This document shows positions 3,001 to 59,100 of a stretch of 64,000 bases of DNA, one piece after another. This DNA comes from an uncultured Candidatus Saccharibacteria bacterium. GTDB taxonomy: Bacteria; Patescibacteriota; Doudnabacteria; UBA920. The first letter of the stretch is position 1. Each line of letters opens with the position of its first letter. The stretch is from assembly GCA_964512925.1 (NCBI GenBank), contig CAZEKH010000001.1, positions 136,226 to 200,225 of the forward strand, given 5' to 3'. A program made the position numbers and the translations under genes. A model generated the notes under the pieces. The model was not told the DNA's origin and searched no databases. It worked only from the letters and a program-made list of their open reading frames with translations.

Positions 3001-3153
3001 GCGGCGGTTACCGGCAAGACTGACTACTTAAGAGGATTGAAGGAAAATGTTATCATTGGAAAACTCATTCCGGCCGGAACGGGTTATGACTTCCATGTAG
3101 CTCAGGAAAAGATCCGAGCAGAAGAAGCAGTTTCAGCAGTGGCAGAAGAATAA
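1..3153 (+). CDS. rpoC: DNA-directed RNA polymerase subunit beta' (5' end truncated by the window edge; ORF track start 46 is an internal TTG)
   Basis: Frame 1 is open from nt 1. Contains the catalytic [14 protein letters not shown] motif and the conserved beta' C-terminal region (GKLIPAGTG). Stop at 3151-3153. Confidence 0.95.
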
Positions 3154-3162
3154 AACATATTG

Positions 3163-3199
3163 AAAAACGCTCCGATGTCCATCGGAGCGTTTTTGTTTT
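3163..3199 (+). terminator. Rho-independent terminator of rpoC
   Basis: Hairpin ACGCTCCGATG-tcc-CATCGGAGCGT followed by TTTTTGTTTT. Confidence 0.8.
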
Positions 3200-3235
3200 G
3201 CTTATAAATAAAAGGGAAAATGAGATATATACATC

Positions 3236-3264
3236 TTGCAAAAGTATTCATTTTATGGTATAAT
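3236..3264 (+). promoter_or_regulatory. sigma70-like promoter for the 3321 ORF
   Basis: TTGCAA (3236-3241), 17-nt spacer, TATAAT (3259-3264). RBS GGAGGGG at 3310-3316 precedes the ATG at 3321. Confidence 0.55.
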
Positions 3265-3320
3265 ATATATTAAGTGCCCTTTTAGTCTTGTATAGGAGCC
3301 CAAGATTGGAGGGGTAAAAG

Positions 3321-3752
3321 ATGGCAAAACTTGCCACAGTATTTTTTCTGGCCGCGCTTAGCGTGGCCTTTTGTGAGGAAGGAGGAAGAAGCATTGTTCT
3401 TTCGGACGTCCGCTATGACGCTCCGAAAGAAGGCACCCGCGCGGTCGGGCGCGGGTGGAAGGTTAGTGCCGCGGCTGTGCTTGCCGCGTCTGCCTTTGAC
3501 TGCCAGTCGTCTTGGGGACGGCTGGAATTGAACCCATTGCTAAGGGGTTCAGACGGACGATTTGGCGCAAAGGGGGCCGGCATCAAACTTGGTATCACAG
3601 CGGGATCTTTGTTTTTGGAGTATGCGCTGGCGCGCAAGCTGCCAAAGGCGGAGAAGGTCGGCGTTGTGACCAACGGTTTGATGGCTGGCGTGTTAACATC
3701 AGTCGCGGTATACAATAAGAAACTTGCCGCCCAGGAGCGGGCAGGCAAGTAA
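3321..3752 (+). CDS. hypothetical secreted/membrane protein with N-terminal signal peptide; high GC (~60%)
   Basis: Good promoter, SD and a downstream terminator. Hydrophobic N-terminus MAKLATVFFLAALSVAF. Composition differs from neighbouring genes. Confidence 0.5.
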   Translation: MAKLATVFFLAALSVAFCEEGGRSIVLSDVRYDAPKEGTRAVGRGWKVSAAAVLAASAFDCQSSWGRLELNPLLRGSDGRFGAKGAGIKLGITAGSLFLEYALARKLPKAEKVGVVTNGLMAGVLTSVAVYNKKLAAQERAGK

Positions 3753-4018: not shown

Positions 4019-6280
4019 TTATTTTGGCCATTTGGATACCATCAGGAGTCCGCCTTTGTCTAGGAGCTTGTGTTCGTTTAAGATTTGCCAGATGTGTTCG
4101 GTAACAAAAGGCATAAAGGGGTGGAGGAGTCTGAGAATAGTATCGAGTATATAGTATAAAGTATTTAGCGTGTTGAGTTTTAATGCTTCGTCGGCCAGTT
4201 GAATTTTACTGGCTTCAATATAGACGTCTGCAAATTCGTGCCAGACAAAGTGATAGATTTCTTGTGCAGCTTCGTGCAGACGGAAGTTCTCCAGGTGTTC
4301 GGTGGAAGATTTAATAAGATTTTCTAATTTGGAGAGGATGTCTTTGTCGGCATCGGTGATTGGCTGCACCCCCTCCCTTAATCCCTCCCCCATCTGATGG
4401 GAGAGGGAAATGGGCGAGGGAGTGTTCTCCTCAGCAGGGGAGGGTAAAGAGGTGAGAATGAAGCGAGCAATATTCCAAAGCTTGTTGGCAAAATGCTTCA
4501 TACCTTTGATTTTGTCTTCAGCAAGTGGAATGTCGTTGCCGGCGGCTGAGGAAAATATTAAAGCAAATCTTAAGGCATCGGTCCCATAGGTATCTATAAC
4601 AGCCAAAGGGTCTATGACATTGCCTTTGGACTTGGACATTTTTTGTCTGTCTTTGTCGCGTACTAGTCCGTGAAGGTAGACTTTTTGAAAAGGAGCTTTG
4701 TTGGTGCGGTAGTAGGAAAGCATAACCATCCTGGCTACCCAAAAGAAAAGTATGTCCCAACCAGTTTCCATAACTTGGGTTGGAAAGAAACTTTTAAAAT
4801 CCAACCTCTCCCCATCCCTCCCCTCAGAAGGGGAGGGGGAAGTAGAAGATTTGCGCTTTTGGTCATTTGCCATAAGTGTGGCAAAAGGCCACTGGCCGCT
4901 AGAAAACCAAGTGTCAAAAGTATCTGGGTCTTGAACTAAAACTTTAGAGTTACATTTTGGGCAAATTGTCTCGGTGTTATTTGTGTCAATTATAAATTCG
5001 GGGCAATTTTGGCAATATTTTGCCGGGATGGATATTCCCCACCAAATCTGTCTTGAGATTGGCCAGTCACGGATGTTTTCCATCCAGTGGCGGAAGATTT
5101 TTTCAAATTTTTCTGTGACAATTTCTACTTCTTTTTTATCCAGTGCTTGTATAGCCATATCGCGCAAACTCGGTCTCCCATCTTTGAGCGGTTTGGTCAT
5201 AGCTATATACCACTGCTGAACAATCTGGGGTTCGATGATTCTGCTGCACTTGTAGCAAGTTTGGACATTGTGTTTATAGTTTTCGTCTATTTTTTCCAAA
5301 AGCCCTTTTTCTTTGAGTTTTTCTACTATTTTTGGTCTGGCTTCTTCAGTGCGCATCCCAGCAAATTCTCCGGCGATAGGTAGAAGCTTGCCGCGAAGAT
5401 CTATAATCTGTTCAAAGTCCAAGTTATGACGTTTAGCAATGTCAAAGTCAACAGCATCGTGCCAGGGGGTGATGGTCATAACTCCACTGCCAAACTCCAT
5501 ATCCACTGCCTTGTCTTTTATGATTGTTGCCGTAATTTTGCCATTGATCCACTCCACATTTTCCAGTTTTTGTCCGTGCTTATACTGCTCGTATCTTTTG
5601 TCGTCCGGATGCATAACTACGTACTTGTCGCCGAACTTAGTTTCAGGACGCGAGGTGCCTATGGTAAAAGGTCCGTATTTAAAATAGTAAAAAGGCTCTG
5701 TGCGTTCTTCGTATTTGGTTTCAAGATCTGCAAGTCCAGTTTGGTGTTTGCTGCACCAGTTGCAAATCCGGCCATCGCGGTAGACAAGGCCGTCTTCGTG
5801 CATTTTTTTAAAAGTGTCGTAAACAACTTTGACTATTTCTGGGTCCAAGGTAAAAATATTTCTACTCCAGTCACAGGAAGCCCCCAGACGTTTTAAGCTG
5901 TTTTCTGTTATGTGTTTGTTGCCCTGTACAAAGTCCCAAATTTCTTTGTAAAAGTCTTCGCGCTGCATCCCAAAACGGCTGCGACCTTCTTTTTCCAGCT
6001 TTTTTTCGTATACCACTTGGGTTTCAAAACCCGCGTGGTCAGTGCCAGGCTGCCACAGGGTTTTAAACCCTTGCATCCTTTTGTAGCGTATTAAAATGTC
6101 TTCAATTGTTACAAATAAAGCGTGCCCTACATGCATAGGCGCATTGGCATTTGGCGGGGGCATTATAATTGTGTAAGGCTCGCCCGTTAGGTTGTCCGGG
6201 TTAAAGTACCCAGAGTCTTCCCACATTTTGTAAATTTTGTCCTCTACTTCGTTTGCGTTGTAAGATTTTTGTAATTCCAT
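4019..6280 (-). CDS. valS: valine--tRNA ligase (class I aaRS); likely start is the internal Met MELQKSYN, the ORF track extends to 6355
   Basis: HIGH-type motif PPPNANAPMHVGHA and KMSKS motif KMSKSKGN. N-terminal YNANEVEDKIYKMWE. Carries two in-frame low-complexity insertions derived from palindromic repeats. Confidence 0.75.
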   Translation of the reverse strand: MELQKSYNANEVEDKIYKMWEDSGYFNPDNLTGEPYTIIMPPPNANAPMHVGHALFVTIEDILIRYKRMQGFKTLWQPGTDHAGFETQVVYEKKLEKEGRSRFGMQREDFYKEIWDFVQGNKHITENSLKRLGASCDWSRNIFTLDPEIVKVVYDTFKKMHEDGLVYRDGRICNWCSKHQTGLADLETKYEERTEPFYYFKYGPFTIGTSRPETKFGDKYVVMHPDDKRYEQYKHGQKLENVEWINGKITATIIKDKAVDMEFGSGVMTITPWHDAVDFDIAKRHNLDFEQIIDLRGKLLPIAGEFAGMRTEEARPKIVEKLKEKGLLEKIDENYKHNVQTCYKCSRIIEPQIVQQWYIAMTKPLKDGRPSLRDMAIQALDKKEVEIVTEKFEKIFRHWMENIRDWPISRQIWWGISIPAKYCQNCPEFIIDTNNTETICPKCNSKVLVQDPDTFDTWFSSGQWPFATLMANDQKRKSSTSPSPSEGRDGERLDFKSFFPTQVMETGWDILFFWVARMVMLSYYRTNKAPFQKVYLHGLVRDKDRQKMSKSKGNVIDPLAVIDTYGTDALRFALIFSSAAGNDIPLAEDKIKGMKHFANKLWNIARFILTSLPSPAEENTPSPISLSHQMGEGLREGVQPITDADKDILSKLENLIKSSTEHLENFRLHEAAQEIYHFVWHEFADVYIEASKIQLADEALKLNTLNTLYYILDTILRLLHPFMPFVTEHIWQILNEHKLLDKGGLLMVSKWPK

Positions 6281-6341
6281 ATGCGATCCTAATTTACGAA
6301 TTACACTCGAATGATCCGAATGTAGTTTGAATAATAAATTA

Positions 6342-6752: not shown

Positions 6753-7119
6753 TGTTTATTTGGATTCCCGCTACCGGCCTTGTCTTGATTGCCAAGTCGA
6801 GACAGGTCGCGGGAATGACAATATAAAAAAATAAAAAACACCTAAAATAGGTGTTTGAGAGCCCTCGCGGGCGGTACCATCTCAAAGTTGTCCCCCAAAA
6901 GCTGAAGCATTTAGGCGGATCCCGCTTTGCGGGACTTAATTTACTACTTTAACGGGCAGTCTCCGGCCAGGTCTAGTTTTTCCAAAGTGGAAATTTCTTC
7001 TGGCACCATCCCGATGACGGTCAGGATATAGGCTTTTTTATAGTATAGAGTATTTGGTATTTTGTATCAAGCGGATAGCAAATTAAAATTATAGATAAAA
7101 TTAAAAAAGGAGAGCGCGT

Positions 7120-9178: not shown

Positions 9179-9733
9179 ATGACTGACCAAGCTGATGAAG
9201 CACTGGCAAAATTGGCGCAAAATGGCGATTCTGGGGCTTTTTCCCAGCTGGTTTTGAGATATGAGCAAAAAATTCTCAGGTACGCCAGAAAATTTTTGTT
9301 TGGTTATCAGGAAGCCGAGGATTTGGCGCAGGAAGTTTTTTTGAAAGCGTTTGTGAATTTGCGAAGTTTTGATACAGACAGAAGATTTTCCCCCTGGATC
9401 TACCGGATTGCCCACAACGAGTTTATAAACGCAATCAAGAAAAAAGGCAAAGAGCCGCTGCCGTTTTTTGACGCTGATGCGATTTTTCCCCACCCGTTGT
9501 CCAAGGAAGATCCGGCCAAAGATACGGACATTGCCCAGACTAAAATAATGCTGGATAAATGTTTGTCCAAGCTTGATCCGAAATACCGCGAGCCTTTGGT
9601 CTTGTTCTTCTTTGAAGATATGGATTACAAACAGATTGCGGACATCTTGCGTATTCCGATGTCCACGGCCGGAGTGAGGATCAAACGGGGTAAAGAGAGG
9701 CTCAAGGAAATTTTTTCAAATATAAAGGGATAA
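9179..9733 (+). CDS. ECF-type RNA polymerase sigma-70 family factor
   Basis: Region 2 (YRIAHNEFINAIKK) and region 4 HTH (DYKQIADILRIPMSTAGVRIKRGKERL). Confidence 0.85.
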   Translation: MTDQADEALAKLAQNGDSGAFSQLVLRYEQKILRYARKFLFGYQEAEDLAQEVFLKAFVNLRSFDTDRRFSPWIYRIAHNEFINAIKKKGKEPLPFFDADAIFPHPLSKEDPAKDTDIAQTKIMLDKCLSKLDPKYREPLVLFFFEDMDYKQIADILRIPMSTAGVRIKRGKERLKEIFSNIKG

Positions 9734-9737
9734 ATAT

Positions 9738-10502
9738 ATGGAAAATTTAGATGATACACCAATTCATAGCAAAGTGCAAAAAGCCATTCAGAGTGGAGAT
9801 GTTAAAATGCGCCCCAGATGGGTGTTTGGACTAAAAACTTTTTCTGCTGTTTTGGGTTTTGTTTTGCTGATTTTGTCTTTGTGGTATATTGGCAGTCTGA
9901 TTGTGTTTCTGCTCAGCGCGAACGGGCTGTGGGCAGCCCCGGGTTTTGGCTTTAGAGGGTTGGTTGCTTTTTTATGGTCAGTGCCCTGGGTTTTGTTGGT
10001 TTTATCGCTTATGTTTTTGTTTGTGGTAGGCCTCTTGGTTAGCCATTTTTCTTTTGCCTATGGCAGGCCTTTGATTTTTACCGCTTTCGGCATAATAGTA
10101 GTTAGCGTTGCCGGGACTGTTATTGTATATCTAACCCCTTTGCATCAGAATTTGTTTTTACAGGCCAGGATGCACAAATTGCCGTTTGGGGAAAATCTAT
10201 ACCAAGGTTATGGGTTTTCCAGGTCTGAAAAATTGGCAGCGGGCGAAGTGATGCAGATTGTGCCTGAGGGTTATGTGCTGGAAACCCCGCAGGAAGAAAT
10301 ATTATATGTATTAGTGGCTCCGGACACGGATTTTTCTTATGGTAGGGATATAGATTTGGGGGATAGGATTTTAGTTATAGGCGTCAGGCGTAAAAATACC
10401 ATAGATGCCAGAGCTGTCAGGGAGCTTAAGAGTCAGGAATTTTTAAGGCCCAGAGGTGCCTATGAGGGTAAATTTAAAATGCTTCAGCTGCCGGTGAAAT
10501 AA
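9738..10502 (+). CDS. membrane protein, putative anti-sigma factor partner of the ECF sigma
   Basis: Starts 5 nt after the sigma gene. Several TM helices. Function by position only. Confidence 0.45.
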   Translation: MENLDDTPIHSKVQKAIQSGDVKMRPRWVFGLKTFSAVLGFVLLILSLWYIGSLIVFLLSANGLWAAPGFGFRGLVAFLWSVPWVLLVLSLMFLFVVGLLVSHFSFAYGRPLIFTAFGIIVVSVAGTVIVYLTPLHQNLFLQARMHKLPFGENLYQGYGFSRSEKLAAGEVMQIVPEGYVLETPQEEILYVLVAPDTDFSYGRDIDLGDRILVIGVRRKNTIDARAVRELKSQEFLRPRGAYEGKFKMLQLPVK

Positions 10503-12415: not shown

Positions 12416-12897
12416 TTTTCGGTTGCGGTTAATTGTCCGTCTGAATTTATTATGCCGATGAACTGGGTGTCGTTTTGGTAGTGTTTTAAAACAAAAGGTA
12501 TTGAGACCTTTGCATTTTTGGTAAACTCGGCGAGTGGCAAGTTGTCTATGGGGTAAAAATTCAGAGCGCCTTCGTTGGAGTCTAAATTGTTTGGGACTGA
12601 CAACAGCACTCCCGTGTGCCAGCAGATTATAGACAAAAGGTCCGGCCTGGTTGTTAAAACGGTTAATTTTAGCTTTAAATCGGAGATTTGATCTAGGGTA
12701 ATATGGCTTTCTTCCGAAAGTTCTCTGAGTAAAGATTTTTGCAAGTCTTCAGCTTCTCCAAGTTCCAACTCGGTCTTGCCGCCTAAAGTGGAAATCAGAT
12801 TCGGATCGCGCTTTCTTTCGGGTGAACGCTTCATTAGTAAAACTTCTTTTTTGTTTGGGTGTATAAGGATCAGACCGGTTCGGCATTCAATTTTCAT
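12412..12897 (-). CDS. NUDIX hydrolase
   Basis: Nudix box GGKTELELGEAEDLQKSLLRELSEES (GX5EX7REUXEE pattern retained). Confidence 0.6.
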   Translation of the reverse strand: MKIECRTGLILIHPNKKEVLLMKRSPERKRDPNLISTLGGKTELELGEAEDLQKSLLRELSEESHITLDQISDLKLKLTVLTTRPDLLSIICWHTGVLLSVPNNLDSNEGALNFYPIDNLPLAEFTKNAKVSIPFVLKHYQNDTQFIGIINSDGQLTATEK

Positions 12898-13141
12898 TTG
12901 ATTGGGTTTTTATTAGTTTAAGTTTTTTTATTCTTGACCATTTTTTAACTTCTGACTCGCGTTTTAGAGCTTTGTTTTTGCTTCGAAATTTTTCACTATA
13001 TACTATTTTTCCGCCGCCACGGCTTCTTGTGTATTTGGCGCCCTTGCCCGTGTTGTGAAGCAGCGCGCGCTTTTTTAGGTCATTTGTTGAACCGGAGTAG
13101 AGGCTTTTGTCTTTACAAAGGAAAATGTAGAAGTAATGCAT
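12887..13141 (-). CDS. small stand-alone GIY-YIG nuclease (COG2827/UPF0213-like)
   Basis: YFYIFLC...LYSGSTNDLKKRALLHN. GIY-YIG motifs within 84 aa. Confidence 0.7.
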   Translation of the reverse strand: MHYFYIFLCKDKSLYSGSTNDLKKRALLHNTGKGAKYTRSRGGGKIVYSEKFRSKNKALKRESEVKKWSRIKKLKLIKTQSNEN

Positions 13142-15487: not shown

Positions 15488-15727
15488 ATGTATTACTTAT
15501 ATATAATAAAAAGTAATATTAAAGACTGGCGTTATATAGGAATCACTGACAATGTTGAAAAAAGGTTAATTGAACACAATAAAGGTAAAACCAAATCAAC
15601 TAAAGCCTATATTCCATTTACGCTTATTTATAGAGAGACTTTTTCTAACAAGACCGATGCTAGAAAAAGAGAAATATATTTGAAGAAAAATTATAAAGCA
15701 AGAGAAGAAATATTTAGAAACTTATAA
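15488..15727 (+). CDS. small stand-alone GIY-YIG nuclease
   Basis: MYYLYIIKSN...RYIGITDNVEKRLIEHN. Confidence 0.7.
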   Translation: MYYLYIIKSNIKDWRYIGITDNVEKRLIEHNKGKTKSTKAYIPFTLIYRETFSNKTDARKREIYLKKNYKAREEIFRNL

Positions 15728-15741
15728 ACATTTTCTTTTGC

Positions 15742-15816
15742 GGCGCTATCATCTAATGGTTAGGATAAGTGGTTTTCATCCACTAAATCGGGGTTCGATT
15801 CCCCGTAGCGCTACCA
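15742..15816 (+). tRNA. tRNA-Glu (anticodon UUC)
   Basis: Cloverleaf with acceptor GGCGCTA/TAGCGCT, anticodon arm AGTGG-TTTTCAT-CCACT, T-arm CGGGG-TTCGATT-CCCCG, CCA encoded. Confidence 0.8.
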
Positions 15817-20128: not shown

Positions 20129-20319
20129 TTGAGCAAAAATAAGTAAAATTGACAAAATTGATCAAAATTTAATAAAACGGGACTTACGTATATGGTGTCA
20201 TTCCCGCGGAGGCGGGAATCTAGTTAGTATAACTGTGTTATTTATTAATAAAATTTACTCTGTCACGTCTATTCATCTTTGATAAAAAAAGACAATATGG
20301 ATTTTTAAAAGTGAATAGA

Positions 20320-23089: not shown

Positions 23090-23215
23090 TTTTATAACCC
23101 GCATCTGTCATTCCGGAAATTCCAATCATTAAGGAATTATCCGGAATCTAGCTTTTTTACCCTGGATCCCAGCTCTCTCCGCCTGCTGGCGGATAGTCTG
23201 GGATGACAAAAAGTT
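23090..23215. repeat. two adjacent copies of the TGTCATYCC-hairpin-GGRATC element family
   Basis: CTGTCATTCCGGAAATTCC...GGAATTATCCGGAATC and CCTGGATCCCAG...CTGGGATGACAAAAAG. Confidence 0.6.
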
Positions 23216-24144: not shown

Positions 24145-24438
24145 CTCGATATGATATTAAGTATAGATTTTCAGCTGTACTTTAGAAACAAGATCCCAGC
24201 ATTCCTCCTTTTTTAAAACTCCGGAAGGATAAGTCGCGAGGATTACAATAAAAATAAACTGTCATTCCGGCCTTTGAGCCGGAATCTTGTATTTTAAGAG
24301 AAATATTTTTCACTGTATTTAGTATTTTACTTTGAATTACGAAATTGTTATCAAGACAAAATTTTCCAGGCGATTGACGAGAGGGGTGTTTTGGAGTACA
24401 ATATAAAGTCCTAAATATAACAATTAATTTATAAATAT

Positions 24439-27801: not shown

Positions 27802-27906
27802 AATAAAATTATTCTAATTATTCTAATTGCTCTAATTAACCTAACTGATTTTTAGAATAATTAGGTCAATTAGGTTAATTTGTCATTACCATTTTAAACC
27901 AATGGT

Positions 27907-30880: not shown

Positions 30881-31211
30881 AGTTTTTCCTTATAGTCTCC
30901 CTCCCCCTGTCTGCCGCCAGGCAGGCAAAGCTTGGGGAGGGTTGGGGAGAGGTTTGATCTTGAATAATAACGATATACAACCCAAGTATTGTAAATGAAA
31001 TAAGGATTTTCGCCAAGCATTAAATTTTTACTAATGCGAAATAATACAAAGTCATTTTTTTGTGTCATCCCCGCGGAGGCGGGGATCTTGCTAATTGTCA
31101 TTATTTACCGATTTTCATATGGGTAAACTTCAACAGGTATCTAAGTTTGCCCAGCAAGGACTTGATTTTTTCAAAGAGAGAGAGAGTACATTACTGGGCA
31201 AGGAGGTAGTT

Positions 31212-42975: not shown

Positions 42976-43103
42976 TTGTAGGTTTGAATTTGAGGTCATT
43001 GTCATTCCCGTGAAAACGGGAATCTTAATGAGTTTATTATACTTGTCCGTAACGCAGGTTGACAAATAAATTTGTAAATAGTATACAAAAGCGGGGAGGA
43101 TGG

Positions 43104-48289: not shown

Positions 48290-49215
48290 TTTGTATAATT
48301 TTTTACATACTAATTAACTCCCCCAAGGCCCCCCGTCCGAACGCCCACGGCGGGCAGGCCTCTTTAAAAAAGAGGGGGGAATGAAGCGGGTAGGTTTGAA
48401 AAAGAGTGGAAAAAATATTACAGTCGTTGCAACCTCACCCCACCCCCTCTCCGATAGCGGAGAGGGGGAAGCGGATGCAAGATTCCAGCCGGAGTTTACC
48501 CCGATGAACATCGGGGCGGGAATGATACCTTTTCTATTTTTGTCATCCCCACATAACCGGGGATCTTGGTTTTTACCCTCTCCAATATGGGAGAGGGTGT
48601 CCCGATGAACATCGGGACGGGTGAGGTTTGAGCGATGGTGATAAAATATAAGTTGGTTTAATTTTCTAACATTGTTACCTCACCCCATCCCCCCGCCCGA
48701 ACGCCACAGGCGGGCAGGTCTCCCAAATGGGAGAGGGGGTAAAGAACGCATCATTCTCACCTAGTGGGAATGATATAGAAACGCGGAATGACGGAATATT
48801 TTTCCTATTTTCCCCAAGTTTCCCACATAGCTTTGCACAGGGGTTTTCCACTTTTGGGGGATAATTTTTGCTGTTTGTTGGGCTTTGACCAGAGGCAGGC
48901 TTTTGTGCCAAGATATAAAGACCACTTTTTACCCCCGTTAGAAGCAATCCGCCGTCAGGTGGATACCGAGCCTTTTTGTGCCCGGGCTTCTAACGGGGTG
49001 ATCTGGTTTGTGGGGACATTAACTCCCCCTGACCCCCTCTTTGAAAAAGAGGGGGAAATGAAAGGGGGTAGATTTGAAAAAGAGGGGAGAGGCTTAAAAT
49101 ATTACAATCATCGTAACCTCACCCCCCTACTTCGTTAAAACTTCGTAGGGCAAGCCAGCCCCCCGCCCGAACGCCCAAGCCGGGCAGGTCTCCGATAGCG
49201 GAGAGGGGAACTAAT
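48290..49215. repeat. ~0.9-kb non-coding repeat cluster
   Basis: Contains CCCTCTCC-loop-GGAGAGGG hairpins, CCGATGAACATCGG hairpins, CCCGAACGCC..GGCGGGCAGGTCTCC modules, a TGTCATCCCC..GGGGATC element and a 75-bp GGTGAGG..CCTCACC MITE-like unit. Confidence 0.7.
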
Positions 49216-50451
49216 TTGATATCTATGAATGAGCTGAAAATAAAAATTGAACAAGAGATTGTTAAAGCTTCCGGGATTTCTATCATCGGGCTTTTAAACG
49301 ACCTGGTGGAATACGCGGAAAGCCTCCGCGCTTCGGACATCCATATTGACCCGTACGAAAAAGATGTGCTGGTTCGTTTTCGCGTGGACGGGGTCTTGCA
49401 GGAGATATTCCGCTTGCCGAAAAATATCCATAGCGAAACAATCAGCCGCATCAAGATTTTGTGCGGCCTGAGGACTGACGAACATCAGGCGGCGCAGGAC
49501 GGACGCTTTCGGATGTTTTTTGATGTTGAAAAGAAAAAATTCATTGACGTCCGCGTGTCCGTGGTCCCAACTTACTTTGGCGAAAACGCGGTGATGCGTC
49601 TTTTGACTGACAAGGCCGAAGGTTTGTCTTTGGACGACTTGTATTTTTCCAAAGAAAACCAGAAAAAAATCCTTAAAGCCGCGCATAAGCCTTATGGGAT
49701 GATCTTAACTACCGGCCCTACGGGTTCGGGCAAAACCACCACGCTTTACGCGCTTATCAAGCTTTTACAGGGGCCAGAAATTTCTATCGTAACTATAGAA
49801 GACCCGATTGAGTACGCGATGCTGGGCATAGAGCAGATCCAGGTCAACTCCAGAACCAACTTAACTTTTGCCCAGGGACTTCGCGCCATCCTCAGGCAGG
49901 ACCCAAACATCATAATGGTTGGCGAAATCCGCGACTCAGAAACTGCCGGGATAGCGGTTAATACGGCGCTTACTGGACATTTGCTTTTGTCCACTCTTCA
50001 TACCAATGACCCGGCTACCACTCTGCCCAGGCTTTTGGATATGGGAATAGAGAGCTATCTGGTTGCCTCCACTGTTAACTTGGTTATCGGTCAGAGATTG
50101 GTTAGAAAAATTTGCGAGAGCTGCAGAGTAGTAAAAAAATTCACCCCTGCTGAAACCAAAAGTTTGTCCGAACATATCCCTTTAAAAATCTTAAAAAAAT
50201 TTAAACACTTCTATCAAGGTACCGGCTGCGATGAATGTAACAACACCGGGTATAAAGGCAGGGTGGCGCTGCACGAGGTGTTGGAAGTTGATGATCATAT
50301 CCGCGAGTTGATTTTGAAAAAAGCTTCCGCAACGGAGATCCGCCATCAGGCTTTTGAAAAAGGCACGGTGGCTATGGGAATGGATGGTCTTTTAAAAGCC
50401 GGGCAAGGCCTGACCACGGTGGAAGAGATACTCAGGATAAGCCATGAGTAG
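49216..50451 (+). CDS. pilB: type IV pilus assembly ATPase, GspE/PilB family (short form)
   Basis: Walker A GPTGSGKTTT, Asp and His boxes, C-terminal tetracysteine CESC...CDEC. Confidence 0.8.
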   Translation: MISMNELKIKIEQEIVKASGISIIGLLNDLVEYAESLRASDIHIDPYEKDVLVRFRVDGVLQEIFRLPKNIHSETISRIKILCGLRTDEHQAAQDGRFRMFFDVEKKKFIDVRVSVVPTYFGENAVMRLLTDKAEGLSLDDLYFSKENQKKILKAAHKPYGMILTTGPTGSGKTTTLYALIKLLQGPEISIVTIEDPIEYAMLGIEQIQVNSRTNLTFAQGLRAILRQDPNIIMVGEIRDSETAGIAVNTALTGHLLLSTLHTNDPATTLPRLLDMGIESYLVASTVNLVIGQRLVRKICESCRVVKKFTPAETKSLSEHIPLKILKKFKHFYQGTGCDECNNTGYKGRVALHEVLEVDDHIRELILKKASATEIRHQAFEKGTVAMGMDGLLKAGQGLTTVEEILRISHE

Positions 50452-50517
50452 AATTATTCTAATTAACCTAATTTCTAATTATTCTAAAATATTATTTTAT
50501 CCCCATAAGCAAAATTT

Positions 50518-50895
50518 TAATTTGCTGTCATCCCGGCCTTGAGCCGGGATCCAGGGTTATATGCAAAACGAATGTTATGTATACATCCTTGCAAACAAAA
50601 GAAACGGAACACTGTATGTGGGAGTGACCAATGACTTAATAAGAAGAGTTTATGAACATAAAAATGATTTAACAGAAGGCTTTACTAAAAAGTACCAGAT
50701 ACACACTTTAGTCTATTTTGAAAATACAGGAAATATAGAAAGCGCAATAAAAAGAGAAAAACAGTTAAAAAGATGGCAAAGACAATGGAAAATATCCCTT
50801 ATTGAAAAACAAAATCCGCAGTGGAATGAGTTATACTCTAACTTGACTTAACCCTGGATCCCGGATATCCGCCTAAGGCGGATTCCGGGATGACA
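50518..50895 (+). mobile_element. GIY-YIG gene bounded by inverted hairpin repeats
   Basis: Left TGTCATCCCGGCCTTGAGCCGGGATCCAGGGTT (50521-50553). Right AACCCTGGATCCCGGATATCCGCCTAAGGCGGATTCCGGGATGACA (50840-50887). Both are members of the same element family, in opposite orientation. Confidence 0.4.
50561..50851 (+). CDS. small stand-alone GIY-YIG nuclease (UPF0213-like) inserted between pilB and pilC
   Basis: CYVYILANKRNGTLYVGVTNDLIRRVYEHKN. Confidence 0.7.
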   Translation: MQNECYVYILANKRNGTLYVGVTNDLIRRVYEHKNDLTEGFTKKYQIHTLVYFENTGNIESAIKREKQLKRWQRQWKISLIEKQNPQWNELYSNLT

Positions 50896-51023
50896 AAATC
50901 TATTTAGCTAAAGCCCTATATTTGATTGGAGTTTATAACCACTTATTTAGAATAATTAGGTTAATTACCTACCCGAATGCCAAGTAAAGCGTGGTAGGCG
51001 GGGAAATTAGAATAATTTAACCC

Positions 51024-52142
51024 ATGTTTAATTTAAAAATTCAAAAAAACACACCTGAACTAGTTACTTCTCCGTCGTTTTTTACCCGCCTTGTTGAAGG
51101 TTCCATCTCCCGCTCGGAGCAGGTGCAGTTTGCAAAGAGGCTGGCTTTTTTGATGCGCGCGGGAGTGCCGATTTTAGAGAGCCTGCAGATTTTGGCCGGG
51201 CAGTCTAAGACTAAAGGCGGCAAAAAAATGTTAGAGAATTTGGTGTCAGAAGTTTCCAACGGGCATTTTTTGTCTACCGCAATGGCTAAGTTTTCTTCCG
51301 TGTTTGGTGACTTTGCGGTCAACATTGTCAAAGTCGGGGAACAGGCTGGCATCTTGCCTGAGAATTTAAACTATTTGGCGGAGGAGCTGAAAAAAAAGCA
51401 GGCGCTGAGAAAAAAAGTGATGGGCGCTTTGTTTTACCCGATATTTATAGTGGTGGCCACGCTTTTGTTGGTGGGACTTTTAACTGTCGTGGTGTTTCCT
51501 AAAGTTTTACCCATCTTTACCAGTATCAATGTGCCTTTGCCTGTTAGCACAAAAATTCTAATGTCAGTCAGCCGGTTTCTCATAGCTTATGGATTTTGGG
51601 TGTTGATTTTGATATTGATTTTTCCCTTCGCTCTTTTGTTTTTATCCCGCTTGCCTAAAGTCAAAGCCTGGCTGGATAAAGTTTTGCTGAAAATTCCGTT
51701 AGCCGGTAGCATTGCCCAGAACTATTATTTGGCTAACTTTTGCCGGACTATGGGACTGCTACTCAAAGGCGAGTCGCGCCTTGACGAAGCTTTGCAGACT
51801 TCCGCGCGTACCACGCAAAATATGGTTTACAGAAAGCAGCTGGAAAACCTGGCGCAGACTGTAGCGAAAGGCAGTAGGATGTCCGAGTATATGCTGAAAA
51901 ACAAAAAATATTTTCCGGATATGGTGTCTCATATGTTGGCCGTGGGGGAAACCGCGGGCAACCTAAGCGAGAGTTTTATGTATCTGGCGGATATGTACGA
52001 AACCGAGGTAGATGACCAGACAAAAAATTTATCTACTCTCATTGAGCCGGTTTTGATGGTGTTTATGGGCCTGTTGGTCGGTTTTGTTGCGATTTCCATC
52101 ATCACCCCAATTTATTCGGTTACCCAGAAATTACATCCATAA
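51024..52142 (+). CDS. pilC: type IV pilus inner-membrane platform protein PilC (GspF family)
   Basis: Two T2SSF repeats and three TM segments. Confidence 0.85.
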   Translation: MFNLKIQKNTPELVTSPSFFTRLVEGSISRSEQVQFAKRLAFLMRAGVPILESLQILAGQSKTKGGKKMLENLVSEVSNGHFLSTAMAKFSSVFGDFAVNIVKVGEQAGILPENLNYLAEELKKKQALRKKVMGALFYPIFIVVATLLLVGLLTVVVFPKVLPIFTSINVPLPVSTKILMSVSRFLIAYGFWVLILILIFPFALLFLSRLPKVKAWLDKVLLKIPLAGSIAQNYYLANFCRTMGLLLKGESRLDEALQTSARTTQNMVYRKQLENLAQTVAKGSRMSEYMLKNKKYFPDMVSHMLAVGETAGNLSESFMYLADMYETEVDDQTKNLSTLIEPVLMVFMGLLVGFVAISIITPIYSVTQKLHP

Positions 52143-55083: not shown

Positions 55084-55096
55084 CCGTTAGAGACTT

Positions 55097-55795
55097 ATGG
55101 AATATACTTATATTTTAAAAAGTAAAAAAGACGGTAAAATGTATACAGGTCTGACCAGTGATCTACGGAAGCGTTTTAAGGAGCATAATGAAGGTTTGGT
55201 TCCTTCTACAAAGAATAGAGGGCCATTTAAGATAATTTATTATGAAGCTTGTGTAAATAGACAAGATGCCGCAAGTAGAGAGATTTTTTTAAAAACTGGT
55301 ATGGGAAAGAGATATATAAAAAATCGTTTAAAACGCTTCCTGTCTCTAACGGCTCAAAGAGATAGTGCTAGCACCGTTATAAACAGCTTGCCAAAGTCAA
55401 GCGAAGTTTTTAACGGTGGATATATCGCTTTAACTTCCGTCATCATCGTTTCTTTATTGCTCCTGACTGTCATCACCGCTTTAAGCTCTGTTAACTATTT
55501 TTCCCGTTACAACATATTGGAAAACGAATATAAGGACAGAAGTTTTGCTTTGGCTGAAGGCTGTGTGGATTATGCTATAGGAAGACTGGCGGGAAATAGT
55601 AATTACATCGGTAATGAAACAGTAAACATCGGAGTCGGAACTTGTCAGGTGGCGTCAGTTTCTTCCGGGGCTTTTCCTAAAACTATCAGCACTGTCGGAA
55701 TTTTTCCACCCACGGCTGCAAAAAAAAGTTATACCAAACTTCAGGCAGTTGTAAGTTCAAGTTTCGCCATCAGTTCTTTTATAGAAAATCCATAA
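55097..55795 (+). CDS. GIY-YIG nuclease domain fused in frame to a pilin-like hydrophobic C-terminal half (possible insertion-generated fusion)
   Basis: First ~90 aa are GIY-YIG (YTYILKSKKDGKMYTGLTSDLRKRFKEHN). The remainder has GGYIALTSVIIVSLLLLTVITAL and an internal TTG that could start a separate minor-pilin ORF. Confidence 0.5.
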   Translation: MEYTYILKSKKDGKMYTGLTSDLRKRFKEHNEGLVPSTKNRGPFKIIYYEACVNRQDAASREIFLKTGMGKRYIKNRLKRFLSLTAQRDSASTVINSLPKSSEVFNGGYIALTSVIIVSLLLLTVITALSSVNYFSRYNILENEYKDRSFALAEGCVDYAIGRLAGNSNYIGNETVNIGVGTCQVASVSSGAFPKTISTVGIFPPTAAKKSYTKLQAVVSSSFAISSFIENP

Positions 55796-56112
55796 ATATG
55801 CTTGTCATTCCCTTGGCAAAGGGAATCTTGTACCCTCTCCCTCTCCGAGAGACGGGGATCTGCCCGCCTTGGGCGTTCGGGTGGGGGTAGGGGTGAGGTT
55901 ACGGATTTGATAAAATTAAAGATATTTAAATATGTAATATTAACCCCTGGATCCCGGATATCCCGCGAAGCGGGATTCCGGGATGACAGCAAAAATTTTT
56001 TGGAAAGATTGAATTTTGAACATTGAATCAAGATATTTCTAAAAAACCAACCGCCTTTACAAAAGGCGGATATAAAATTATAATTAAGCCATAAATATTA
56101 AATCATTAAAAT

Positions 56113-58779: not shown

Positions 58780-59100
58780 CCCTTGAGGGGGAGGGTTAGG
58801 GAGAGGTGATGCAGTGAATTTTTTTTCATCCTCGCGACTTGTCCTTCAGCAGTTTGAACGAAGGAGGAATGTGGGGATCTTGGTTTTTTGCCCTCTCCGA
58901 TATCGGAGAGGGTGTCCCGATGAACATCGGGACGGGTGAGATTTGAGCAATGGTGATAAAACATAAGTTTATTTAATTTTCTAACATTGTTACCTCACCC
59001 CTGACCCTCTCCGAAAGCGGAGAGGGGGAAGAGGATGCAAGATTCCCGCTGGAGTTTATCCCGATAAACATCGGGGCGGGAATGACAGCATTAAATGAAA
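58780..59100. repeat. second copy of the ~230-bp composite repeat unit (circularly permuted relative to 48437-48683)
   Basis: 58872-59005 matches 48553-48683. 59005-59095 matches 48437-48527, both at high identity. Confidence 0.75.

Follow-up and report, generated by a model that had tools for sequence, protein, structure and literature searches.

Two earlier descriptions of one kind of hairpin repeat provide the closest comparison for the locus considered here. In the first, the Ssn system, a 94-aa single-domain GIY-YIG nuclease, SsnA (CDD cd10448), is tied to NTS/SRM hairpins across phyla (Chenal et al., Nat Commun 2025;16:2388; PMC11893778). The 28-nt NTS of Neisseria reads CGTCATTCCCGCGMAVGCGGGAATCYRG, and 42% of the Ssn homologues are flanked by hairpins on both sides (PMC11893778). 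SsnA binds the hairpin only as single-stranded DNA (ssDNA), and its cut falls a few nucleotides upstream; cutting is controlled by the three nucleotides located 5' of the palindrome, binding by the C after the palindrome. Each of the exchanges Y6A, Y17A and E64A abolishes cutting, and activity is lost in Neisseria when the palindrome is altered with the hairpin kept (PMC11893778). The system has a modulating influence on the natural transformation of N. meningitidis, and its authors put forward the hypothesis that the NTS-ssnA-NTS layout, which resembles an insertion sequence, is possibly a domesticated one (PMC11893778). In the second, the repeats appear under the name of CGTC-tagged REPs, with families CGTC-1 to -4 including dRS3/NIME of Neisseria and RPE-4/RPE-6 of Rickettsia (Di Nocera et al., BMC Genomics 2013;14:522; PMC3733652). 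These repeats combine a terminal CGTC/TGTC tag, a stem of 8-9 bp with AT at its start, a 4-5-nt loop and a CCA-type tail, occur mostly as opposite-orientation dimers and were judged to 'apparently lack a dedicated transposase' (PMC3733652). Here we describe a gene, termed ssn, that very probably belongs to the same nuclease family, together with its flanking hairpins. It lies in a stretch of 64,000 nucleotides (referred to as the window) from an uncultured Candidatus Saccharibacteria bacterium of the GTDB lineage Patescibacteriota; Doudnabacteria; UBA920 (GenBank assembly GCA_964512925.1, contig CAZEKH010000001.1, positions 136,226 to 200,225).

The open reading frame (ORF) in question, 50561-50851 on the plus strand, encodes 96 aa, sits in the gap between pilB and pilC and matches the GIY-YIG domain with residues 5-77 (Pfam PF01541, E=9e-15). 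An earlier note, drawn up from the letters of the stretch, had described this ORF as bracketed by inverted hairpins between pilB and pilC, and sequence, Pfam and repeat search all agree with that description. On the strength of sequence comparisons, we take the protein to be, with high probability, an Ssn-family single-domain GIY-YIG nuclease located beside its cognate hairpin repeats in a module that was acquired by insertion. The object is a further example of the nuclease/hairpin system published in 2025 and not a new type of element; what is new is the host group, i.e., bacteria of the Patescibacteria/candidate phyla radiation (CPR) type, and the divergence of the repeats. The features of the locus are the following:

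49216-50451, plus strand: pilB-like gene for a T2SSE ATPase (Pfam PF00437, E=1e-118), upstream neighbour.
50526-50558, plus (coding) strand: left SRM/NTS-like hairpin, TGTCATCCCGG-ccttgag-CCGGGATCCAGGGTT (sequence, hairpin scans, ssDNA fold).
50544-50559 and 50849-50864, no strand: inner arms, a perfect 16-nt inverted repeat, CCGGGATCCAGGGTTA and TAACCCTGGATCCCGG (repeat search, 100% complementary).
50561-50851, plus strand: ssn gene for the 96-aa single-domain GIY-YIG protein, probable Ssn family, with predicted catalytic residues Y8, Y19 and E66.
50850-50895, minus strand: right SRM/NTS-like hairpin, AACCCTGGATCCCGGA-tatccgcctaaggcggat-TCCGGGATGACA, a reverse-oriented relative of the left hairpin that overlaps the ssn stop codon.
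51024-52142, plus strand: pilC-like gene for a T2SSF platform protein (Pfam PF00482, E=9e-52), downstream neighbour.

Pilin-like genes with N-methylation motifs come after pilC. The G+C content (GC) of the ssn ORF is 30.9% vs. 46.8% for pilB and 44.2% for pilC.

Assignment to the Ssn family is based on several lines of comparison. In BLASTP, the window protein and the SsnA orthologue from N. gonorrhoeae share 53% identity (76% positives, 0 gaps, 91 aa, E=2e-38), and tblastn against the N. gonorrhoeae chromosome detects a single homologue (E=3e-27, 95% coverage). The published homology criterion for Ssn is an E-value below 1e-10 with at least 75% coverage relative to SsnA, and the window protein falls within these bounds with the N. 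gonorrhoeae orthologue as the reference. When its start is placed two codons before the matched Cys, the N. gonorrhoeae ORF comprises 94 aa with Y6, Y17 and E64, i.e., the published length and residue numbers, and it is surrounded by canonical NTS copies. Residues Y8, Y19 and E66 of the window protein align with Y6, Y17 and E64 of SsnA and are 98-100% conserved among 197 homologues. In the alignment of these homologues, the window protein keeps every position that is conserved to at least 95% with the exception of D90E, including the C-terminal K70-W72-R74-W76-K77...N85...W88...L91 motif. The protein family counts thousands of members; the best non-self matches are 67-76% identical, identity is about 70% across phyla, and one relative protein is 94% identical to the window Ssn. 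A second domain was not detected in the 96-aa protein by Pfam, NCBIfam gave sub-threshold matches only and no specific family, and the only match in a PDB sequence search was a weak one to 1ZG2 (UPF0213, E=0.004).

As a side observation on the reference record used here, N. gonorrhoeae NZ_CP119142.1 (L174:4995-5279) is filed as a plasmid, but with a size of 2.17 Mb it is evidently the chromosome, and it carries almost no annotation. Its SsnA orthologue is without an in-frame ATG at the expected start: Cys3 is preceded by ATT ATA, and the ATG that overlaps there lies in another frame.

Both hairpins flanking ssn contain the elements of functional importance in the Ssn system, i.e., a 5' YGTC tag, a palindrome and a C following the palindrome, with the upstream copy on the coding strand (+) and the downstream copy on the opposite strand (-). 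The left hairpin consists of the 5' tag TGTC, a stem (ATCCCGGCC/GGCCGGGAT) in which one position is mismatched, the C at 50551 that comes after the palindrome, and the tail CAGGGTT; 9 nt separate its scanned element (50526-50551) from the start codon of ssn. The right hairpin is an extended variant with a 15-bp stem, GTCATCCCGGAATCCGCC-tta-GGCGGATATCCGGGATC, rather than a simple hairpin, and its scanned element (50857-50895) lies 5 nt from the ssn stop codon. According to ssDNA folding both are stable (left, free energy (dG) -11 kcal/mol, z -4.1; right, dG -16.2, z -5.5). The arms of the 16-nt inverted repeat abut the start and stop codons of ssn, while the outer ends of the hairpin unit form a perfect 11-nt inverted repeat (50526-50536 / 50885-50895). 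The flanking hairpins have the stem GTCATCCCGG, which is common to hairpins beside ssn genes of Doudnabacteria and from which most dispersed copies in the window differ, and we therefore assign the flanking pair to the ssn gene.

The hairpins beside ssn are members of a family with the consensus GTC-ATYCCSS...SSGGRAT-C that occupies about a dozen further sites in the window according to motif and structure scans. A structural scan, in which a GTC tag, a stem of at least 7 bp and a following C were demanded, yielded 17 sites in the 64 kb vs. 1.5 +/- 1.3 (maximum 4) in dinucleotide shuffles. Clear GTCATYCC...GGRATC family members account for 12-14 of the 17, which bears out the previous count of ~14 related sites. 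When spurious short ORFs are discounted, all of these hairpins are intergenic. Within the window alone, their association with ssn is not significant, with 2 hairpins in a spacer of ~0.3 kb vs. an estimated ~1.4 per kb of non-coding DNA.

The decisive evidence that the association between gene and hairpins is real comes from the comparison across genomes. The survey drew on species-representative genomes (80 homologous loci) and on metagenomes (80 loci), in which 149 homologues were counted; the loci include Alpha-, Beta- and Gammaproteobacteria, Nitrospirales, Chloroflexia, Omnitrophota, Marinimicrobia, Saccharibacteria and other Patescibacteria. An upstream(+)/downstream(-) hairpin pair within 150 bp was present for 62 of the 149 homologues (42%) as compared to 4 of 666 control ORFs (0.6%) drawn from the same loci (Fisher p=3e-46), and the proportion of 42% equals that published for Ssn homologues (PMC11893778). 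The hairpins showed an orientation bias both upstream (73 vs. 18, p=5e-9) and downstream (82 vs. 30, p=9e-7). In the other loci, they are located at a median distance of 21.5 nt from the start codon (upstream) and 14 nt from the stop codon (downstream), as compared to 9 and 5 nt here. In the first-set loci that were inspected, an upstream hairpin on the coding strand and a downstream one on the other strand recur repeatedly, and stems vary between genomes and match each other within a locus. A hairpin family scattered without any tie to GIY-YIG genes, the outcome that the earlier note had named as speaking against its proposal, is thus not what was found.

Three observations weigh against the assignment of gene and repeats to the Ssn system. 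Codon 90 of the window ssn specifies Glu while 99% of the 197 homologues have Asp, although the change is conservative. The dispersed stems vary (ATTCCCGC, ATTCCGG, ATCCCCGC, ATTCCCTT and others), and because a change of the palindrome abolished activity in Neisseria even with the hairpin kept (PMC11893778), many of the dispersed copies may not be substrates. Finally, the published degenerate SRM pattern, HGTCWYN(0-2)YYVSBRHN(0-5)WNVSBRGN(0-2)RNCYNB, has 0 matches in the whole window, the ssn flanks (within 500 bp) included, whereas in a positive control the Neisseria locus gave 9 matches and the 160 related loci gave 141. The pattern misses the hairpins of the window because of their loop composition (such as GGAG or CCTTGAG) and because the stem on the right-hand side is extended. 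Like those of most CPR loci, the repeats of the window vary in loop and stem beyond what the published pattern covers, and surveys that make use of it probably arrive at too low a number of Ssn/repeat pairs for CPR bacteria.

Comparison with the nearest genomes available supports the conclusion that, relative to these, the ssn module has been inserted and separates pilB from pilC. In the three closest syntenic relatives, the PilC proteins of which are 63-69% identical and in which the operon has the order UvrA ... pilB-pilC-pilin-~490 aa-~160 aa-~140 aa-pilin, the gap between pilB and pilC measures 3, 22 and 45 bp vs. 572 bp here. The C-terminus of PilB is conserved: the relatives' proteins end with ...EE[IV]LR[IV][SA]HE and the window protein with ...EEILRISHE, in each case directly before the stop codon. 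None of the family hairpins was found in the 8-9 kb regions of the relatives vs. six in the same stretch of the window, and the deviating GC of the ssn ORF likewise supports an insertion. The operon-splitting insert proposed from the sequence is in agreement with these junctions. The proposal of a ~380-bp selfish unit can be retained in part: a discrete hairpin-gene-hairpin unit with inverted hairpins exists and has a length of 370 bp, but the inserted DNA is larger, the entire 572-bp spacer being absent from the relatives. That the unit is selfish or currently mobile is no more than a possibility: the 64 kb contain a single Ssn copy, a target-site duplication is absent at 50525/50896, and Ssn is highly conserved and has a host function in Neisseria. 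The additional DNA on both sides of the hairpin unit is AT-rich and contains the following arms:

50443-50488, no strand: AT-rich outer arm of the inverted repeat next to pilB, TTAGAATAATT motifs reversed (repeat search); overlaps the pilB stop codon.
50943-51026, no strand: AT-rich outer arms of the inverted repeat next to pilC, TTAGAATAATTAGGTTAATTA ... AATTAGAATAATTTAACCCATG; extend into the start codon of pilC.

When the whole spacer is folded to minimum energy (z -6.1), 50443-50488 pairs with 50943-51030, and the resulting nested long-range stems place the stop codon of pilB beside the start codon of pilC. An AT-rich palindrome, TTAGAATAATTAGGT[TC]AATTA, occurs twice in the window. At 27806-27880 it is without cargo, its arms are adjacent and it is located directly upstream of a minus-strand ORF start, while at the pilB-pilC junction the ssn module lies between the arms, which are separated by ~455 bp. 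This palindrome, which includes a -10-like TAGAAT, may be a promoter or leader or may serve as an insertion target. The module would have entered the pilB-pilC junction of the type IV pilus operon together with ~200 bp of extra AT-rich inverted-repeat DNA.

Other loci provide information on the ends of the unit. A contig from Marinimicrobia (L042) carries two paralogous ssn units 3.7 kb apart, at 5954-6330 and 9680-10050 (minus strand), with ORFs that are 82% identical. The two are similar from precisely the GTC tag of the left hairpin up to a point within the right hairpin, the DNA outside being unrelated; the upstream hairpin plus leader (~42 nt from the GTC tag) is 100% identical between the copies, and one copy has extra DNA within the loop of its right hairpin. 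The order pilB-SRM-ssn-SRM-pilC recurs in a metagenome-assembled genome of Saccharibacteria (L009, 3557-4085) and in its close relative L178 (2989-3500; PilC 84% identical), and the cargo common to these two stops no more than 3 nt from the right tag (in L178, three nucleotides beyond it), the flanks farther out being unrelated. In L177, another close relative (3053-3500; PilC 89%), the pilB-pilC junction holds no ssn and is occupied by a gene for a 118-aa PF05635 '23S rRNA IVS protein' (four-helix bundle), and the same 33-nt AT-rich inverted repeats surround the different cargoes of L177 and L178. In L179 (1-92; PilC 61%), the pilB-pilC spacer has a length of only 66 bp. Taken together, the sequences fit a discrete, possibly mobile cassette that ends at the hairpin tags and is gained or lost at operon junctions. 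As to the ends of the element, which the earlier note had recommended to define by aligning all GIY-YIG flanks, the comparisons of the L042 paralogues and of L178 with L009 place them at the hairpin tags. The empty pilB-pilC junctions, the paralogues ending at GTC tags and the alternative cargo are the first concrete hints of such a cassette that we found, and they bear on a question left by the REP and Ssn papers, i.e., whether Ssn spreads the CGTC-tagged repeats.

The genomic surroundings of ssn in CPR bacteria are diverse. Besides the pilus operon they include transketolase-ssn-PfkB, protease-ssn-RuvX and a position next to a gene with an RNase T domain, while some surveyed loci have 2 ssn copies within 12 kb. 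In related Doudnabacteria (L167, L168 and L170), the synteny of ssn is stable. A general link between ssn and pilus genes was considered and rejected: when PilB and PilC were compared by tblastn with the 160 ssn loci, adjacency was encountered only in L009, and the other CPR contexts are those of unrelated housekeeping genes. The location in a pilus operon in two CPR lineages is suggestive in view of the modulation of transformation by SsnA in Neisseria, but 2 of ~10 CPR contexts are too few for a claim, and a functional link to DNA uptake is a possibility.

A comparison with described systems places the locus next to Ssn. Alike are the single domain of ~94 aa, the Y/Y/E residues, the inverted YGTC-tagged hairpins on both sides and the dispersed intergenic copies (PMC11893778). 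On the other hand, the host is of the Patescibacteria/CPR type, a group without mention in that paper, the module resides within a type IV pilus operon, and the hairpins escape the published SRM pattern and include extended-stem variants (PMC11893778). With the CGTC-tagged REPs, the hairpins of the window share the tag, the stem starting with AT, the loop, the CCA-type tail, the pairing of opposite units and the multi-copy intergenic occurrence (PMC3733652). Different from these, a GIY-YIG gene is present here between two repeats, and Patescibacteria are not among the five phyla listed in that paper; copies with long loops or extended stems occur here, and such copies were noted there for some families (PMC3733652).

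The REPIN-RAYT system also features a usually single-copy nuclease gene between inverted short palindromes, which are dispersed and often form inverted doublets, and recognition of ssDNA hairpins. The RAYT protein, however, is an HUH/Y1 tyrosine transposase associated with GTAG-tagged REPs, whereas a GIY-YIG hydrolase and CGTC/TGTC tags are found here, and the likeness is one of analogy, not homology. In IS200/IS605 elements, subterminal ssDNA hairpins are likewise recognized and cleavage occurs a short distance away, but there a covalent Y1 enzyme cuts one and the same strand at both ends, while the inverted hairpins of the window and a hydrolytic enzyme lead to the prediction of cuts on opposite strands. 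Proteins of the UPF0213/YhbQ type (BH0048, PDB 1ZG2) and the products of short CPR GIY-YIG genes, three of which are present in the window besides Ssn, resemble the window protein in their size of ~80-100 aa and in comprising the core only. They differ by the absence of the Ssn motif K-x-W-x-R-x-W-K...N-x-x-W-x-D-L and of SRM hairpins, and the window paralogues are 32-38% identical over the core.

By homology to the characterized enzymes from Neisseria and Wolbachia, from which cleavage chemistry, cut positions and a role in restriction are inferred, a mode of action can be proposed. The hairpin strand would fold when the DNA is single-stranded, i.e., at replication forks, during transcription or in incoming transforming DNA. 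Ssn would bind the ssDNA hairpin only, recognizing the 5' YGTC tag, the palindrome with AT at its start and the C behind it, and would cut the same strand a few nucleotides 5' of the tag. Predicted cuts would then fall immediately to the left of 50526 (top strand) and immediately to the right of 50895 (bottom strand), and the dozen or so dispersed intergenic hairpins would be further targets in the genome. More speculatively, nicks could promote recombination between repeats and in this way copy ssn into an empty hairpin dimer, or Ssn could restrict incoming single strands that bear the repeats, as in Neisseria.

An active autonomous mobile element, by which Ssn would mobilize itself along with its repeats in a manner comparable to RAYT/REPINs or TnpA/IS200/IS605 and which would recently have transposed into the pilB-pilC gap, would explain the inverted-repeat architecture, the empty sites in relatives from two separate CPR clades, the varied genomic contexts among CPR genomes, the two nearby copies in some loci, and the deviating GC of the ssn ORF. 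It also accords with the extent of the L042 paralogues from the left GTC tag into the right hairpin and with the end of the cargo common to L178 and L009 next to the right tag, and an architecture like that of an insertion sequence has been raised as a hypothesis for the family (PMC11893778). Against it stand the single copy in 64 kb and the lack of a target-site duplication, and the stable synteny in the three Doudnabacteria loci. To our knowledge, GIY-YIG enzymes hydrolyse DNA, and strand transfer is not known for them, which speaks against transposition as well. In addition, the flanking hairpins would direct cuts to opposite strands, so that excision in the style of IS200/IS605 is not to be expected, and strong conservation of the protein across phyla along with a host function in Neisseria fits a domesticated gene. 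We regard an active element as possible, though somewhat unlikely. A more specific version, in which the SRM-ssn-SRM unit is still mobile, Ssn is the missing mobilizing enzyme of the CGTC-tagged REPs and the unit lands in AT-rich palindromes at operon junctions, appears rather unlikely. If it were true, the pilB-pilC junction of CPR bacteria would have been struck independently in two distant lineages, that of the window and the Saccharibacteria clade in which the frame holds ssn or the PF05635 gene. In a weaker variant, placement in the operon for a DNA-uptake pilus may have been selected since Ssn would act on incoming ssDNA, as in Neisseria. The relevant unit could also be the AT-rich inverted-repeat frame (50443-51030), which would accept small genes as cargo or be processed like the stem of an rRNA intervening sequence (IVS), ssn being only its current cargo. 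The nested stems of the whole spacer, the cargo-free palindrome at 27806-27880 and the 33-nt inverted repeats that in Saccharibacteria flank either the ssn module or the PF05635 gene at the same junction argue for such a frame. However, low-complexity AT-rich spacers readily yield imperfect inverted repeats, the TAGAAT... motif may be a promoter or 5' leader before start codons, and among the two lineages compared no empty palindrome was seen at a pilB-pilC junction, and we consider this explanation improbable.

Two further explanations treat gene and hairpins as unconnected. A free-standing GIY-YIG gene for a homing endonuclease like those of phages (Seg/I-TevI type), with incidental hairpins, is suggested by the superfamily, the intergenic position, the low GC and a weak match to the model for group I intron endonucleases (TIGR01453; 24 bits vs. 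a cut-off of 56). The 96-aa protein, however, consists of the catalytic core only and has no DNA-binding domain, is directly homologous to SsnA and belongs to a family in which the orientation-specific association with hairpins is conserved across phyla. That family is nearly absent from phages, as a set of 50,697 phage records contains no close match and IMG/VR contains 2, and we judge this origin highly improbable. That the hairpins, which are GC-rich, intergenic and stable, are transcription terminators or regulatory RNA stems of the pilus operon and the GIY-YIG gene is an unrelated housekeeping gene has hardly any probability in our view. No terminator-like sites with a T-run were found in the scanned region 50300-51200, and an Rfam scan of the window detected two tRNAs only and no family that matches the hairpins. 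Besides, the hairpins occur in both orientations and have a conserved unpaired 5' tag, syntenic relatives are without them, and the association with ssn holds across genomes.

The remaining family hairpins of the window include the following:

6763-6819, minus strand: dispersed family hairpin.
20196-20223, plus strand: dispersed member, TGTCATTCCCGCGGAGGCGGGAATCTAG, 2 positions off the published Neisseria NTS consensus.
23107-23148, plus strand, and 23165-23207, minus strand: hairpin pair (dG -27, z -6.3).
24261-24286, plus strand: dispersed family hairpin.
31064-31087, plus strand: dispersed family hairpin.
43001-43024, plus strand: dispersed family hairpin.
48482-48526, minus strand: dispersed family hairpin.
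48542-48566, plus strand: dispersed family hairpin.
55950-55987, minus strand: dispersed hairpin, near-twin of the right ssn hairpin (stem ATCCCGGA, extended form; scans, fold).
59041-59086, minus strand: dispersed family hairpin.

The pair at 23107-23207 has its tags outward and its tails inward and is arranged as around ssn, with a gap of 16 nt between the scanned elements and no gene. The hairpin at 55950-55987 (-) forms another tags-outward pair with a copy at 55804-55827 (+); the two are separated by a 122-bp spacer and located past the end of a pilin-like gene. Several SRM hairpins are adjoined by a second short palindromic motif, TACCCTCTCC ... GGGAGAGGGT (48566-48600, ~48700-48730, 55828-55850 and ~59000-59040), which may be a separate repeat family or a piece of composite repeat clusters.

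Besides ssn, the window encodes further GIY-YIG domains:

12887-13141, minus strand: small stand-alone GIY-YIG gene, non-Ssn, 84 aa.
15488-15727, plus strand: small stand-alone GIY-YIG gene, non-Ssn, 79 aa; ends 14 bp before a tRNA gene (15742-15813).
55097-55351, plus strand: second GIY-YIG domain, not Ssn, ~85 aa, fused in frame to a minor-pilin-like gene; GC 32.5%.

In addition, a UvrC-like gene near 42.9 kb has a GIY-YIG domain. No SRM hairpins were found in the window beside the non-Ssn genes at 12887 and 15488 or the UvrC-like gene.

The domain starting at 55097 had been presented previously as a second GIY-YIG, followed by two members of the hairpin family. As a second Ssn unit this candidate was rejected, because it belongs to a different subfamily, lacks the Ssn C-terminal motif and has no directly flanking SRM hairpins, being enclosed by an inverted repeat of its own instead. 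This repeat is perfect, 11 nt long and located at 55084-55094 / 55342-55352 (CCGTTAGAGAC / GTCTCTAACGG), and an internal perfect 13-nt inverted repeat is present at 55167-55179 / 55328-55340. With 38% identity to the window Ssn and 36% to Neisseria SsnA, similarity is limited to the catalytic core. The two hairpins do exist (55804-55827 and 55950-55987), but they are situated ~450-600 bp past the end of the domain, with the pilin-like segment in between. The ORF 55097-55795 encodes 232 aa, of which the first ~85 residues are GIY-YIG and the remainder a conserved minor-pilin-like protein; the domain is without a stop codon of its own and thus reads in frame into the minor-pilin-like gene. In the three relatives, the pilin-like protein begins with a short leader directly before G-Y-I-A-L-T-S-V-I-I and the GIY-YIG domain is absent. 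Since these syntenic relatives are without it, the domain is interpreted as a lineage-specific insertion between tightly packed genes of the pilus operon.

Small nuclease-like genes of yet another type, PDDEXK_3 (PF13366), were noticed between housekeeping genes in ssn-carrying loci of Doudnabacteria (L167:6845-7249; L169:280-669 and 5767-6168). They represent another family of small ORFs in CPR genomes that is possibly mobile.

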